A stretch of 22,465 nt of DNA from a virus (Duplodnaviria > Heunggongvirae > Uroviricota > Caudoviricetes). The notes beneath the pieces are model-generated. The model did not search any database and was not told where the DNA came from. It worked only from the letters and a program-made list of their open reading frames with translations. The stretch is taken from positions 1-22,465 of the IMG/VR virus record IMGVR_UViG_3300020049_005532; one strand, written 5' to 3'. Position 1 is the stretch's first letter; each line of letters opens with the position of its first letter. Below are positions 6,750 through 18,582 of this stretch, in pieces. The translations under genes were made by a program, and so were the position numbers.

Positions 6750-7502
6750 ATGGCCGCCATTTACGGGTTAATAGATCCTATTACTCAAGAATTAAAGTAC
6801 ATAGGTCAAACAATAAAATCTCCAGAAGTAAGACTAGAAGGTCATTTGCGTGATGCTAGGTATGCAAAATATGGAACTAAAAATATAAGATGGATCAAGT
6901 CTTTACAAGAAAAAGGAATTAATCCCGTTTTAGTGGTTTTGGAAAGCAATTTAGATATCAATCAATTAAATGAACTGGAAATTTTCTATATAGCGTATTT
7001 TAAATTTATTGGTTGCACTTTAAACAACATGACTCCTGGCGGATTAGGACATTTAAACCATGCCCCAAGTCTAGAAACCAGAAAAAAATTAAGCGATTCT
7101 CATAAAAAGAAAAAATGTATAGATTTAGAAACAGGAAAAATATATCCGTCTATGATGTCTGTGCATAGAGAATTTAATTTTCATCAAGGACATTTAAGTT
7201 ACTGTTTGGCAGGTAAAACAGCGTCAATTCATGGCAAATATTTTAGTTACTTACCTAAAAATGTTGAAGATTTATCTAAATGGAAAGCTGATGAGCTTTT
7301 AAAAAGACAATCAATAACACTAAAAGCTAACAATAAATCGTATTTACATAAAAAAATTCAATGTATTGAAACGGGTGAAATTTTTGATAGCCTAAAAGGT
7401 GCGTCAAAAAAACTAAAAGTAAAATCTAGTAGCATTTGTATGGTATTAAAGGGGAGTAGGTCTCGCGTTGGCGGATTTACTTTTAAGTATGTCCGAAATT
7501 AA
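6750..7502 (+). CDS. Free-standing GIY-YIG homing endonuclease with NUMOD3-like and two NUMOD1/IENR1-like DNA-binding repeats
   Basis: IYGLIDP...KYIGQT...RLEGH...LEIFYIA...LNNMTPGG; SLETRKKLSDSH; KKCIDLETGKIYPS and KKIQCIETGEIFDS repeats. Confidence 0.88.
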   Translation: MAAIYGLIDPITQELKYIGQTIKSPEVRLEGHLRDARYAKYGTKNIRWIKSLQEKGINPVLVVLESNLDINQLNELEIFYIAYFKFIGCTLNNMTPGGLGHLNHAPSLETRKKLSDSHKKKKCIDLETGKIYPSMMSVHREFNFHQGHLSYCLAGKTASIHGKYFSYLPKNVEDLSKWKADELLKRQSITLKANNKSYLHKKIQCIETGEIFDSLKGASKKLKVKSSSICMVLKGSRSRVGGFTFKYVRN

Positions 7503-11001: not shown

Positions 11002-12867
11002 ATGGGAAAAGAACAAGCCGGTAAAGGTATAGTTAAAGGATTTAATTCTTTACGGAAAGCTTTAGGGCTTGCCGATAATCTACCTTTAGAGCGTGCAGCA
11101 GAGGCAGCTGATCCAGCAGTATTAAACAAAGTAGATCAATTGCTGATGGGACAAGGAATTGATCCCCAATCTATTGGTACATATGAAGACAAGATTAAAA
11201 CTCTTATTACAAAACCCGACGCTTATGCTGAATACCGTAAAACTTTAAATGAAGTTTATGGTGCTGGAGATAACAGAGCGGAAGCTGCTAAATGGGGCAA
11301 TAAAGATTGGTTTCATGGAACTACTGTCCCAATTGATGAATTTAAAAAGGACGCGCTAGGTTTATCAACTAACGCAAAATCAGCAGAAAAAGGATTCTTT
11401 TTTACTGATCACGCTCCTACTGCCGGAGATTATTCTGACCTGGCAGCTAACTCCGGAATAATTAGAGAAGGCGATACAGTTACGACAAGAATGTTATCAG
11501 AAACCGCGCCGCTTTTAGATGATTTAGATGTTTCTTTAAGAGATGCAAATATGGAAAAACAATTTGCAATTGACAGTTTTCGCCGACAAGTAGACAGAAA
11601 TGATAATACTCAAAAGTTAATTGAGGCAATTAAAAATAGAGGCGAAAAAGATGAAATTGCGGAAAGATTACCAAAGTTACAAGCTGATTTAGCTCGTGGA
11701 GAAAAATTTATAATAGATCAACAATCTAAAATAAAAACTTTTGATGACCAAATTAAGAATTTAGATGACAAAATAAAATCTCAAGGCCAAAATGTTATAC
11801 CCGTTAAATTGAGAGCCAAAGATGGCAAAATACATGTAAAAGATTACAAAGGTCAAGGTTACAGAGATACAACATATGCCGATGAAATGACAAAGGCGCA
11901 AGAAAAAGGTAATAGTGGCGTATTGTTTAAAAATACATACGACCCAGCCGACCCTAATAATAGAGTTCAGCAAAACATTGCGGCGGTATTTGAACCAGAA
12001 CAAATTCGTTCTAAATTTGCAGCATTTGATCCAGCATTAAACAAAAGTAAATGGATTATGGCAGGCGCAGCTGGCGCAGCAATAAACATGTTACCAGAAG
12101 AATCAGAAGGAAGCATGGCAAATCCAAAAAGTTTTAAACAATTAGCAGAAATAGCAAAATTTAAACAAGGTTATGTTGTACCAAAACCGCACAACATGGG
12201 TACACCAAAGATTACCGATATGGGTAATGTTAAATTTGAAACAGCTGAAGATGGCATGAAAACAATCATTCGACTTCCTGATGGCAAAACATTTAATGTT
12301 ACAAGCGATAAGGGCGATAGCCTTAATATGGCACAAGAGATGATCTATGGTCGTTCACCTAGCCAACCTGGCACTGGTAGCATGGGCGAGCCTGGTAAGA
12401 TCTCTGGCGATGTAGCTGGCACAATGGAGCGTTCACTAGATGAAACACAAGTGATTGAGCCTAAGTTCTCCGGTGATATTCCAGTTAAGAAGTCTGGTGG
12501 TTTTGTTGGAGCAGGGCTTGCTGGACAAGACGGTTTTGGTATGATGAAGGATTCTGCCAAAGACATGCTCTCCGGACTTAAACAAGGGTTTGATAAGTAT
12601 AGAGAAGTTGCCGTAAAGCCGGTTTCTGATAAACTTAAAAAGACGCTTACTCCAGATATTAATGTAGGAAAAGAGTCTTACCCGACTTCAAGCGTTGCTT
12701 CAGATTTTATTCTTGAAAATGCACCAGATGCAACAAATTATGTTGCTGGCGGAGTGGGAGCAGCAGTCGGAGCTTCAGATCTAGCGTCTAGTTTTGTGGA
12801 CGACGAGGAAGCTAAGAAGCGCGAATTAAACTTTGGCGGACTAAGAAGCATTTTAAACAAGAAATAG
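11002..12867 (+). CDS. Multidomain protein with an ADP-ribosyltransferase-like (ART-PolyVal type) domain; probable virion-associated protein
   Basis: WFHGT, KGFFFT..A..Y, VIPVKL, GNSGVLFKNTYD and AVFEPEQIRSKFAAFDP motifs; located between portal and scaffold. Confidence 0.7.
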   Translation: MGKEQAGKGIVKGFNSLRKALGLADNLPLERAAEAADPAVLNKVDQLLMGQGIDPQSIGTYEDKIKTLITKPDAYAEYRKTLNEVYGAGDNRAEAAKWGNKDWFHGTTVPIDEFKKDALGLSTNAKSAEKGFFFTDHAPTAGDYSDLAANSGIIREGDTVTTRMLSETAPLLDDLDVSLRDANMEKQFAIDSFRRQVDRNDNTQKLIEAIKNRGEKDEIAERLPKLQADLARGEKFIIDQQSKIKTFDDQIKNLDDKIKSQGQNVIPVKLRAKDGKIHVKDYKGQGYRDTTYADEMTKAQEKGNSGVLFKNTYDPADPNNRVQQNIAAVFEPEQIRSKFAAFDPALNKSKWIMAGAAGAAINMLPEESEGSMANPKSFKQLAEIAKFKQGYVVPKPHNMGTPKITDMGNVKFETAEDGMKTIIRLPDGKTFNVTSDKGDSLNMAQEMIYGRSPSQPGTGSMGEPGKISGDVAGTMERSLDETQVIEPKFSGDIPVKKSGGFVGAGLAGQDGFGMMKDSAKDMLSGLKQGFDKYREVAVKPVSDKLKKTLTPDINVGKESYPTSSVASDFILENAPDATNYVAGGVGAAVGASDLASSFVDDEEAKKRELNFGGLRSILNKK

Positions 12868-14505: not shown

Positions 14506-14522
14506 TTTTAAGGAGTTAATGT

Positions 14523-14693
14523 ATGGCTACTACTAACGCATTTAGTACCCCAGATAATACCGTAGGTAATCTGAATGGTATGTTCAAGGAAGTTTACGCG
14601 GATAAACTACAAGATCTTCTTCCGGACGGAGTAATCCTTTTGAAGGAAATCAAGTTTAACGGTAAAGACAAGCAACCAGGAAATCTTTTCCAT
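14523..14693 (+). CDS. MCP exon 1 (57 codons)
   Basis: MATTNAFSTPDNTVGNLNGMFKEVYADKL...PGNLFH, then an in-frame TAA that is the first three bases of intron 1. Confidence 0.85.
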
Positions 14694-17009
14694 TAATAGC
14701 TGGTGGAATTAAAATTTTCTCTAATTGACTCGAACATCCAGAAGTGGACAACGAGGCGGAAGCGAAAGCACCGTGAGAGACTAAGCGAGAAGACTGTAGA
14801 AATACAGATGCAATAGTCCGATCTACCGCATAACCCAAGAAACGGTAGAGATAAGCAGAAATGACTTATCCCTTTTGACCAAAGGTAACAAACACCGCAG
14901 CCGGTAATTTTAGGTCACGAGCATAAACAAAATTAAACTGTGCTCATTAAATTTTCTCTAATTGACTTGGAACTCCAGAAGTGGACAACAAGGGCGAAGA
15001 CTTAGGTCACGCTGAGAGACTAAACGAGAAAACACTTGACAAACATTAAAAATGATGTTAATATAGTGATGCGATAGTCCGAACACTGATATAACCCAGG
15101 AAGTCAGTGAGATAGACAGAAATGTTCTATCCGGTTTTTAGGAAGAAAACTAGTAACAAATTGGGTGTAACTTTTGCAGGACCGGAAGATGACGGGTTCA
15201 ATTTGAACGCGCCCATCGCCAGTTCGATCAAAGACGCACAGGTAAACTAAGTGCCTGTCCCTACAGTGATGTAGGTGAAAAAACTGAGGAAATTGCTGGA
15301 AAGCTAAAGTTTTTATGAGACGCGGCGTCATTTACAGAATTACAAATTTACTTAACGGTAAGGAATATTATGGCCAAACCGTTAATGCTGATCCGATTCA
15401 GAGATGGTACGCACATTGTTCTAAATGTAGAACAAGCGCAGTAAATCTCGCGATTCAAAAGTACGGAAAAGCTAATTTTAAGTTTGAAATAATCTGTAGT
15501 GCCAAGTCAATTGAAGATTTAAACTATTTAGAACAATACTTCATTGCTAAATATCAAACTCTTGCTCCAACCGGATATAATCTGGACATAGGAGGAAGAA
15601 ATTGTTTAAAAAGTAAAGAAAGTATTGAAAAAGGTAACATAAAACGTAGACTTAAGATTTTTAAAGATCGGCGTCGAGGAATTATTGCTACCCATTCAGA
15701 AAATGGTCACATTATTGAGACCGAAATAGTTAAAGACTTTCTTAACTTTGGATTTACTAAAAACGACCTATCAAATATTCGATGGGTGTTAACTGGTAAA
15801 GGTTCTAAAAAAAGAGTTAAGAAATACTTCTTCAAATATAGAGACCAAGTCAATCAGAGCCTAATCGTAGAAGATAACATGTCTACGGCGGCGCAACGAC
15901 TCGACAGTGAAACCGAGTAATCGGAATATAATCTGTCCAAGAGACCTCAGCCCTTCAAATAGAAGGTGAAGATATAGTCTGAACTTATAGGAAACTATAA
16001 GAAGTAGGGGATAAAAAGCCTTTACGATAACAACCCTTGACGAGGGTGCCCAGCAGTTCTTCGTTCGCTTCTCGGCTACAACGCTGCGTCGCGAGCACAA
16101 GGTTCGCAAGCTGCTTTCATGGATGCAACAAAATATGTTGTATCGAACATGCTGCGCTCTATGTCTAAGAAACTCGAAATCGAGCTTCTCTACGGACAAA
16201 TGGGTTATGCTACAGTTAACGCAGGTACTACTGCTTCTACTCAGTTTGTTGTAAAACTTGCTGAATGGGCACCAGGTATCTGGGCTGGAGCAGAGGGTCT
16301 TCCAATCGAAGTACGTTCGTCTGACGGCGCGACATCGCGTGGTGAGAACATCGTAACTGCGGTTGACATGGACACTCGCACGATCACTATGCAATCGGCA
16401 ATGACGCTGACTGCTGACGACGTTGTATGGCACAAAGGTGCTTACGGTAAAGAATTCGCAGGTATCCATAAGATCCTGTCGCAAACTTCCGGCACACTTT
16501 TCAACATCAACGTTGGTAACTACGGTATCTTCCGTGGTAACTCGTACAACGTTTCAGGCGCTTTGACACAAGCAAAACTTGGTCTTGCTCTGACTCGTGC
16601 AGTAGAAAAAGGTCTTGATTCAAAAGTTCTCGCTTTGGTTAACCCAAAAGCATGGACTAACATGATGAACGACCAAGCAGCATTGCGCAAGTATGATTCG
16701 TCATACTCGTCAGCAAAAGCTGAAAACGGAACACAGAAGCTTGTCTTCTTCTCGCAGAATGGCGAAATCGAAGTTCGTCCATCTACTTTCATTAAAGAAG
16801 GTTATGGATTCGTTCTCGATATGTCGGCATGGCTCCGAGTTGGTTCGCAAGAGATCTCTTTCAAAATGCCAGGATCAGGTGACGAGTATGTACTCCACCG
16901 CCCAGATCAAGCTGGTTACGAGATGCGTCTCTTCACTGACCAAGCTATCTTCACACATAAGCCTGGCACATCGGTCATCTTGACTGGTATTGTCAACGCT
17001 ACATCGTAA
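14523..17009 (+). CDS. Major capsid protein, spliced: join(14523..14693,14898..14924,15164..15243,16040..17009), 415 aa
   Basis: AAGGAG RBS before ATG 14523. Removing three U|...G| introns gives 1248 nt in one open frame: ...KQPGNLFH|QPVILGHEH|GVTFAGPEDDGFNLNAPIASSIKDAQV|RGCPAVLRSLLGYNAASRAQGSQAAFMDATKYVVSNMLR... Confidence 0.9.
14694..14897 (+). ncRNA. Group I intron 1 (204 nt, no ORF)
   Basis: P1: exon UUCCAU pairs with GUGGAA (14703-14708) with a U.G splice pair. P10: GCUG pairs with exon CAGC. P7: GACU/AGUC (GAGAGACTAA...ATAGTCCGA). P5 TCCA-GAAG-TGGA; P8 CTGTA-GAAA-TACAG; terminal G14897. Confidence 0.9.
14898..14924 (+). other. MCP exon 2, 27-nt micro-exon (QPVILGHEH)
   Basis: Bounded by the terminal G of intron 1 and the U of the intron 2 P1 helix; preserves the frame. 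Confidence 0.85.
14925..15163 (+). ncRNA. Group I intron 2 (239 nt, no ORF), sibling of intron 1
   Basis: P1: exon GAGCAU pairs with GUGCUC (14940-14945). Core blocks are shared with intron 1; P7 GACU/AGUC; ends GTAACAAATTG. Confidence 0.9.
15036..15064 (+). promoter_or_regulatory. sigma70-like promoter inside the P8 extension of intron 2
   Basis: TTGACA (15036-15041), 17 bp ending TGT, TAATAT (15059-15064); same hexamers and spacing as the promoter at 783-811. Confidence 0.55.
15244..16039 (+). mobile_element. Group I intron 3 (796 nt) carrying a GIY-YIG homing endonuclease
   Basis: P1: exon ACAGGU pairs with GCCUGU (15253-15258). P2 CCTACA/TGTAGG; P3 CTGAGG (15284-89)/CCTCAG (15945-50); AATTGCTGGAAA; P7 GACT (15898-901)/AGTC in GAAGATATAGTC; P9 CTTATAG-GAAA-CTATAAG; terminal G16039. 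Confidence 0.9.
15315..15920 (+). CDS. Intron-encoded GIY-YIG homing endonuclease
   Basis: GVIYRITNLLNGKEYYGQT...QRWYAH...KYG...F.FEII...LEQYFIAKY...GYNLDIGG. Confidence 0.88.
   Translation: MRRGVIYRITNLLNGKEYYGQTVNADPIQRWYAHCSKCRTSAVNLAIQKYGKANFKFEIICSAKSIEDLNYLEQYFIAKYQTLAPTGYNLDIGGRNCLKSKESIEKGNIKRRLKIFKDRRRGIIATHSENGHIIETEIVKDFLNFGFTKNDLSNIRWVLTGKGSKKRVKKYFFKYRDQVNQSLIVEDNMSTAAQRLDSETE
16040..17009 (+). CDS. MCP exon 4 (contains the track ORF 16119-17009)
   Basis: The frame is open from 16041 (RGCPAVLRSLLGY) through MDATK... to TAA 17007-17009. Confidence 0.88.
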
Positions 17010-17021
17010 TTGATGTAACTT

Positions 17022-17052
17022 AAAGGGGGCCCTTCGGGGCTCCTTTTTTTTT
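17022..17052 (+). terminator. Rho-independent terminator after the MCP (possibly bidirectional)
   Basis: AAAGGGGGCCC-TTCG-GGGCTCCTTT stem with a C(UUCG)G tetraloop and a long T tract; the convergent accessory block ends at 17055. Confidence 0.9.
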
Positions 17053-17054
17053 AT

Positions 17055-18582
17055 TTAATACTCCGTCCAATTTATACGTTTATAATGCAACATTGGTAAA
17101 TTTTCATCTATATCAATGAGATCATCATTGGTAAGACCTAAATATAAATTGTCTGCAAGAAAAAAGACATAATATCTATCAAATGTCCAGCCTTTAGAAT
17201 AGAAATAAATGTAATTATCCCCAATCATTTATATATCCATACATAATTCTTCATAACTACATGTTTTAATGAACCAATCTCGTTCGCTTTATTATCTCGA
17301 AAAACTAAAAATAGCTCTCCATGACTTATTTTAAAGTTATAAAATTTATGATTATCAAAAGTATGTATGATAAATTGTCCTGCTTCCATGTCTTTCGCAT
17401 CAATTGGTTTCATATTTTAACTTCTTTAAAAGAAAGTGGTATTACTCTATTTTCGCTAATATAAAAATCCCGATAACCTCTTATGCAAACGGTTAAAGAC
17501 ATGTAATCATATTCAAGCCTTTCCCAATCTTGACCAAATGTAGCAATCTTCTTTTGTTTTTTTAGAGCTTAATTTGGCTCCTAACAAGCCTAATACAGTA
17601 GCTATCGCTGATATAAAATTGCTGATGAATGATACTAAAGATGTCCCCATTAATGTAAGCATACTGCTGTTCCTTTTCTCCAAAAGTTCCAATAAGCATA
17701 TTAAAAGTTTTCCCAATAAATATCATCTGACCGACCAATGCTAATGTTCCAAGTACGGATGTAAAGGGCCTCTCTGTTATTTAATTTTATTTGAAAATAG
17801 CCATCGTTTTCTGATGTAGTCGGATTATAACTAATTAGTGATCTATTTTTATGTAAAAAGAAAGCTAAATATCCCTTAAAGAAATCCCTAGGGCGATCTC
17901 TAGCAAAAAACAAAAACATAAATGGCGTGACAACTAAAACAAAAATTCTAAAAGTTAATGTATTTAGCAAATTCATCATACCTTAAACTCTCCAACAAAC
18001 AGAGTTATTGAAGTCGTTTCGCTAATCCAATACCTTTTATAAAGTAACACATAGTAACCATCCGATTTTAGCTGATAGACATTTTCATTTAAACTTAACG
18101 TTCCAATTAAGCTATAAGACATTTATCTACATCATCCATCTTATAAGACTTGCCTTCATGCCAGAAGTAACCAAGATCAAAAGCTGATTCAATTGCTCGC
18201 ATTGCATGTTCTTTTGACTCAGATTCTGGTAAAATAATTACCTTTTTACTAAATAAAATAAATACTGGCCTCATTTATTGTCCTTTTAAAGCTTAGAAAT
18301 ATACGGAGTTTTTTTATAACCTTCGCCAGAAGCATATTTATTCAAAAAATCACTAGTTACGGTTAGTGCATTTGAGCCATAATCTGTAACAGTTTCCAAA
18401 GTAAACACTTTAATTCCGGACATTAGTCCTTTAGTAGCGTGATCATTTTCCCAAAATGAAACCACATTATTTAAATTAATATGAGTATCAATGCCAGACT
18501 TATACTGACTAGTTTTGATATCATAATAAATTCTGTTTACTTTAAAAATCATTTTATCCTCCAGCAACGTAATATTTATCAA
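17055..18582 (-). CDS. Cluster of small AT-rich hypothetical ORFs (17055-17228, 17225-17413, 17513-17716, 17701-17979, 17976-18122, 18286-18582 and others)
   Basis: ORF track plus hand translation; overlapping start/stop junctions. 17976-18122 contains RYWISET, resembling the 818-1622 family. Confidence 0.6.

Follow-up and report, generated by a model that had tools for sequence, protein, structure and literature searches.

Major capsid gene of an uncultured phage interrupted by three predicted group I introns

The capsid locus and its joined reading frame

The first 22.5 kb (the window) of the IMG/VR record IMGVR_UViG_3300020049_005532, an uncultured phage genome of 86,465 bp rated complete, carries a major capsid gene whose coding sequence is interrupted by three inserts with the features of group I introns. 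The gene lies in the order terL, portal, a protein with an ART-PolyVal domain, a scaffold-like acidic open reading frame (ORF), the capsid gene and a strong terminator. The features of the locus are as follows.

14510..14515, plus strand: ribosome-binding site AAGGAG, read from the sequence, 7 nt 5' of the ATG at 14523
14523..14693, plus strand: exon 1, codons 1-57, last codon His CAU, collinear with the homologs P0004 and P0005
14694..14897, plus strand: intron 1, an ORF-less 204-nt insert in phase 0 after codon 57, a compact group I ribozyme ('type A')
14898..14924, plus strand: exon 2, a 27-nt micro-exon (QPVILGHEH), 3' end CAU
14925..15163, plus strand: intron 2, an ORF-less 239-nt insert in phase 0 after codon 66, a sibling of intron 1
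15164..15243, plus strand: exon 3, 80 nt, 3' end GU (phase 2)
15244..16039, plus strand: intron 3, 796 nt, inside codon 93, a probably IA2-like group I intron ('type B'), terminal G at 16039
16040..17009, plus strand: exon 4, from the third base of codon 93 through codon 415 and the stop codon
17022..17047, plus strand: intrinsic terminator 3' of the capsid gene, an 11-bp stem followed by a T run

The frame that opens at the ATG ends after 57 codons unless the exons are joined. When joined, the four exons give 1248 nt encoding 415 amino acids (aa), the same frame that the original prediction had placed behind the AAGGAG motif. That prediction had also expected gene callers to report a truncated protein of 296 aa. 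The callers do truncate the gene, as is evident from its protein database entry (P0006), which is a call of only 282 aa; the figure of 296 aa corresponds to the longest ORF in the 3' part of the gene (16119-17009).

A search with the exon-4 translation as query found 2196 homologs, many of them uninterrupted and 405-420 aa long. Two of these, P0004 with 416 aa and P0005 with 415 aa (92% and 89% identity, respectively), aligned with the spliced product with no gap, and the residues over all three junctions were the same as in P0004. The intronless alleles that encode them (L001 and L002) were likewise gap-free over the junctions, at 81-83% DNA identity. The exons are therefore collinear with intronless homologs in both protein and DNA, which was the comparison proposed together with the prediction.

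Intron boundaries were located with a purpose-written protein-to-DNA spliced aligner that gives a bonus for a T before the insert and a G at its end. The aligner returned 14694-14897, 14925-15163 and 15244-16039, each with the T before and the G at the end, and these positions agreed exactly with the predicted ones. Without the bonus, several boundaries shifted by 1-3 nt to synonymous alternatives. One such shift, at intron 3, would place Lys rather than Arg at codon 94; it was rejected, as it puts an A at the splice site, loses the P1 helix and disagrees with the closest homologs. The aligner also proposed introns among the variable opening ~16 codons and for the truncated loci L017, L030, L042 and L055; these were spurious and were discarded. 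No core-less mini-introns were seen in the window capsid gene, whose exons aligned without extra gaps.

The family of the spliced gene matched phrog_14242 ('major head protein') with an E value of 5.5e-10. The AlphaFold model of P0004 was of modest quality, with a predicted local distance difference test (pLDDT) score of 62.7. In a Foldseek search of this model against the PDB, the best matches were the capsid proteins of VP1 (E 2.6e-7), SU10 and Pa223, and encapsulins were also found. The Pfam SU10_MCP match to the capsid family was weak and below cutoff, and the capsid-family profile gave no meaningful match among PDB sequences. The split gene is the single HK97-fold major capsid gene of the phage.

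Ribozyme structures of the three introns

The helices of introns 1 and 2, including the internal guide sequence (IGS) that pairs with the exon, were assigned at the following positions.

14699-14793, plus strand: intron 1, guide and early helices; IGS GUGGAA 14703-14708, P10 GCUG 14699-14702, P3 14715-21/14787-93
14729-14774, plus strand: intron 1, P4 14729-32/14752-55, P5 14737-40/14745-48, P6 14756-59/14771-74
14779-14818, plus strand: intron 1, P7 14779-83/14814-18, P8 14794-98/14803-07
14823-14897, plus strand: intron 1, P9 14823-28/14843-48, P9.1 14850-55/14865-70, terminal (omega) G 14897
14940-15079, plus strand: intron 2, IGS GUGCUC 14940-45, P3 14952-58/15026-32, P7 15018-22/15075-79
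15033-15163, plus strand: intron 2, 3' part, enlarged P8 15033-36/15065-68, P9 15084-89/15104-09, terminal G 15163

All of the sequence signs on which the prediction was built held, namely an insert that follows a U, a 6-bp P1 with a U.G pair, a terminal G and a P7 of GACU and AGUC. The P1 helices are UUCCAU:GUGGAA in intron 1, GAGCAU:GUGCUC in intron 2 and ACAGGU:GCCUGU in intron 3, and GACU...AGUC is present in each of the three. Introns 1 and 2 have no P2. Their cores are 80% identical and their guide sequences differ, each being complementary to its own upstream exon end. The P10 of intron 1 has 4 bp (GCUG:CAGC), and its GCUG strand becomes GUUG in relatives whose 3' exon starts with CAAC. 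Unconstrained minimum-energy folding of introns 1 and 2 recovered P4, P5, P6, P7, P8, P9 and P9.1, with z about -3.

Other phages have homologous ORF-less introns in their capsid gene, at codons 24, 57, 59 and 63. An RNAalifold analysis of ten type-A introns revealed P1, P3, P4, P5, P6, P8, P9 and P9.1, and 34 of the 43 pairs had double compensatory changes; P7 (GACUA:UAGUC) was invariant among the ten. We also built a covariance model, R1, from eight introns of other phages only. This model scored 179.1 bits on intron 1 (E 1e-50) and 147.7 bits on intron 2 (E 1e-41), and no non-standard pair was flagged. A sequence profile of the same eight introns found no other match in the 86-kb genome. 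With blastn, intron 2 had one short match among cultured-phage records, so type A lacks a characterised relative.

RF00028, the general group I model of Rfam, is a single broad model with a gathering score of 50 bits. At the gathering threshold Rfam had no match in the window, and RF00028 run over the phage genome had none at E 0.01. Below the threshold, it scored 42.1 bits on intron 3 (E 1e-8) and 20.7 bits on intron 2 (E 0.028) and did not match intron 1. Related ORF-less introns likewise scored low (28.5 bits). The covariance-model check that had been proposed for the prediction was thus borne out for introns 1 and 2 with the foreign-intron model, while none of the three introns reached the Rfam threshold.

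These structures bear on whether the inserts are removed from the RNA at all. Retained inserts would imply translational bypassing, separate polypeptides, a pseudogene or an assembly artefact, and the fact that gene callers give only the 3' fragment could be taken in that sense. However, the inserts are 204-796 nt long with many stop codons, far longer than in known bypassing, and exons of 9 and 27 codons have neither a start codon nor a ribosome-binding site. Homologous inserts with covarying ribozyme helices also recur across independent samples, and no intein or group II features were found. We consider retention of the inserts very improbable.

Intron 3 is larger and contains a gene. Its elements are listed below.

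15253-15289 with 15945-15950, plus strand: intron 3, 5' helices; IGS GCCUGU 15253-58, P2 15260-65/15270-75, P3 15284-89/15945-50
15859-15979, plus strand: intron 3, core helices; P6 and P6a 15859-15892, P7 15898-901/15976-79, P7.1-like hairpin 15903-15937
15952-16025, plus strand: intron 3, 3' helices; P8 15952-56/15962-66, P9 15984-90/15995-16001, P9.1 16004-10/16019-25
15315..15920, plus strand: gene for a 201-aa GIY-YIG homing endonuclease, set into a peripheral loop of intron 3

The endonuclease domain was identified by Pfam PF01541 at 38.2 bits (cutoff 22.6), and the ORF matched PHROG homing endonuclease families, including 314 and 7168, with E values down to 6.6e-25. An nhmmer search with foreign type-B introns matched intron 3 at E 9.4e-40. 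In one related locus (L003, 89% capsid identity), a 280-nt ORF-less homolog occupies the same site and has a GCAA-capped hairpin in place of the window's endonuclease ORF. This arrangement shows that the last ~65 nt of the window ORF, which overlap the region from P4' to P7.1, belong to the ribozyme core.

Comparison of intron 3 with 12 related introns at 8 sites revealed a conserved J6/7-P7 block, the J8/7-P7' block, P9 and P9.1, and a P8 that is variable but compensated. The stretch that separates the 5' strand of P7 from the 3' strand of P3 forms a covarying hairpin with an inner GNRA-capped stem (15903-15937), which may be an IA2-like feature. Covariation was found in P3, P7, P7.1, P9 and P9.1; for example, P3 is CUGAGG:CCUCAG in the window and CUAGGA:UCCUAG in L003, and P7 changes from GACUA:UAGUC to GCAUA:UAUGC. 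The 3' core matched 358-378 cultured-phage records, which include the annotated lysin intron of phage K and the gap between two terL fragments of Streptococcus thermophilus phage 2972. We place intron 3, a probably IA2-like ribozyme, in the lineage that also occurs in the lysin gene of Staphylococcus phage K and in terminase genes of S. thermophilus phages.

Several observations weigh against the reading of three group I introns. The P4-P5 pairing of intron 3 is only 4 bp and uncertain, its P7 has 4 pairs instead of 5, and its endonuclease ORF overlaps the core. To these are added the failure of all three introns to reach the 50-bit RF00028 threshold, and the modest capsid fold model with its low TM-scores. 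In another reading, the inserts are group I introns of which at least one, likeliest intron 3, has decayed and self-splices inefficiently, leaving the genome defective or reliant on a helper protein or a neighbouring ribozyme. Besides the weak P4-P5 and the ORF overlap from P4' to P7.1, decay would fit the C.U mismatch of P7 relative to the GACUA consensus and the truncated endonuclease genes of two related loci (L028 and L075), which indicate that decay does occur in this intron family. On the other hand, the capsid gene is essential and single-copy in a record rated complete, the core of intron 3 closely matches its 12 homologs at 8 sites, and the endonuclease ORF is intact. Decay therefore seems improbable to us, if somewhat less so than retention of the inserts.

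Introns in the same gene of related phages

A survey of 80 related loci from IMG/VR retained 40 inserts. About 25 of the loci have an interrupted capsid gene, with 1-4 introns each, and the inserts fall at ~17 sites, all in codons 21-93. No insert was found in codons 94-415 in any of the 80 loci, despite equal protein-level conservation of the later regions. Of the 40 inserts, 30 (75%) could form a U.G-containing P1 of 6 bp or more, compared with 4.7% of the control words taken from exons. Across the inserts the guide tracks changes at the wobble bases of the exon, as is seen at site 57. Codon 57 is CAT in all seven intron-bearing alleles and CAC in 41 of 44 intronless alleles. This contrast reveals selection for the splice-site U and is independent evidence that it is required.

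A homing endonuclease gene is present in each of the 20 long inserts that were tested; the enzymes are of the LAGLIDADG type at sites 21, 34 and 49, HNH at 59 and 63, and GIY-YIG elsewhere. The 15 ORF-less introns, which come from 10 loci, are each accompanied by an endonuclease-bearing intron elsewhere in the gene, and in the seven single-intron loci every intron carries an endonuclease. Profiles of type A and type B introns matched the window genome in the capsid gene only. The truncated GIY-YIG ORFs of ~100 aa mentioned above lie in introns at site 67 (L028 3493-3810 and L075 3153-3458), which suggests endonuclease decay after fixation.

The L003 gene (2011-4126) contains four introns, after codons 54.2, 59, 79.2 and 92.2, and the exons between them are 13, 62 and 39 nt long. 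Other micro-exons in related loci are as short as 12-14 nt. Two of the L003 introns target the same word, AACCU|U.

Overall, the presence of three group I introns in the capsid gene is supported by the exon collinearity, the covarying helices, the foreign-intron model and the intron-encoded GIY-YIG gene. We hold it highly probable that a single HK97-fold capsid gene is interrupted by three group I introns whose splicing gives the 415-aa protein.

Proposed splicing and mobility, and comparison with known systems

Each ribozyme of the late pre-mRNA would use its guide to bind the six terminal bases of the upstream exon, forming P1 with the U.G pair at the cut. Free guanosine would make the first cleavage, and the terminal G would then serve exon ligation. 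After three such splicings the RNA would contain the 1248-nt frame for the capsid protein. That splicing takes place, and efficiently, we infer from the essential nature of the gene and the conserved ribozyme cores; on the same grounds, the introns might exert a regulatory effect on capsid synthesis, which the original prediction had pictured as a possible delay or throttle.

On co-infection, the GIY-YIG endonuclease may cause intron 3 to home into alleles that have no intron. Mapped on such an allele, the three insertion sites of the window gene fall within 107 nt. Because the sites of introns 1 and 2 are only 107 and 80 nt from that of intron 3, both introns would probably be carried along by co-conversion when intron 3 homes.

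A further element lies within intron 2.

15036..15064, plus strand: sigma-70-like promoter, TTGACA, 17 nt, TG-TAATAT, 10/12 matches, in the P8 loop of intron 2 and directed towards the endonuclease gene

This predicted promoter is the best-scoring site of the region. L003 has an ORF-less intron, inserted at another site, whose homologous P8 loop contains a 12/12 sigma-70 consensus (2586-2614). In both genes the next intron downstream of the promoter-bearing loop, ~220-250 nt away, carries a GIY-YIG gene. The first 93 codons of this capsid gene family could be viewed as a shared arena of cooperating selfish elements, with ~17 sites taken by at least two lineages of ribozyme and by endonucleases of three families. 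ORF-less introns would retarget to new sites nearby by a change of the guide alone, spreading as in reverse splicing, and persist by riding on the endonuclease of a neighbour, and a P8-loop promoter may serve to express the endonuclease of the intron that follows. We put this forward only tentatively and think it rather less likely than not to be correct. If true, the P8-loop promoters would amount to a division of labour between separate introns.

Should splicing proceed as proposed, the most heavily made virion protein would depend on three successive RNA-catalysed reactions that standard annotation misses, and capsid genes of this phage clade have to be annotated with splicing in mind when they are called from metagenomes. 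The ~40 introns at ~17 sites also form a compact natural data set, with 12-27-nt micro-exons and sibling introns bearing retargeted guides, in which the movement of group I introns to new sites and their coexistence can usefully be studied.

Other features were noted near the gene. Weak Rfam matches to small RNAs (TarB, sraA, Atu_C8 and others) at 16953-17103 all fall on the terminator hairpin of the capsid gene and are most likely terminator look-alikes. Between the portal and scaffold-like genes, positions 11002-12867 encode the 621-aa ART-PolyVal protein (ADP-ribosyltransferase of polyvalent proteins), which may be a virion-packaged effector. A 250-aa ORF at 6750-7502 has an I-HmuI NUMOD-like domain and homing-endonuclease PHROG matches, and overlaps the TTG start of terL (7468). 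As terL looks complete, the ORF more probably encodes a stand-alone homing endonuclease than one inside an intron.

Introns in capsid genes, including several in one gene, have been published, and the window gene adds to a known arrangement. The original prediction had named the three-intron gene of Staphylococcus phage Twort as a precedent, but its background was incomplete, since it left out these capsid cases (PMC3706429, PMC7886860). Twort orf142 resembles the window gene in having three group I introns (Landthaler and Shub 1999, PMC22036); that case is reported as experimentally proven, whereas splicing of the window gene is predicted from sequence. In mycobacteriophage LittleE, splicing of the capsid intron was shown by N-terminal sequencing and reverse transcription polymerase chain reaction (Pope et al. 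2013, PMC3706429), and a capsid-gene intron in Tuc2009 is cited in the same paper. As in the window, the phage capsid genes of these two cases contain an intron of group I type together with a homing endonuclease, but they have a single intron, in contrast to three and a 27-nt micro-exon here.

Intron 3 can be compared with better known elements through its P7'-P9-P9.1 core, which shares 85-90% identity, across 41-70 nt, with the lysin intron of phage K (ORF30/ORF32 with ORF31) and the phage 2972 terL gap. Homing endonucleases are present in or beside the phage K, 2972 and window elements. However, the similarity is limited to the 3' core, and the host gene, the insertion site and the endonuclease differ. 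The Jug jumbo gut phages have ~18 small group I introns per genome (~206 nt) in essential genes, with splicing supported by metatranscriptome reads (PMC12880540). These introns are spread genome-wide, in contrast to the type A and B profile matches of the window genome, which are confined to the capsid gene.

A parallel to the overall arrangement is provided by the crAss-like phages, in which group I introns occur in Delta-group capsid genes and the capsid gene of the Zeta-group OLRF01000054 is in five fragments, so that a capsid gene there has up to four inserts (Yutin et al. 2021, PMC7886860). In both cases a major capsid gene split by several group I introns was found by metagenome analysis. 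The window phage nevertheless represents a different lineage: it is not detectably crAss-like, since terL, portal and capsid all failed to match records of that group, and a Silvanigrella phage with 25-30% identity is the nearest record. Unlike in the crAss-like case, the ribozymes of the window gene are defined, two of the introns are ORF-less siblings, and the insertion sites are clustered in codons 21-93.

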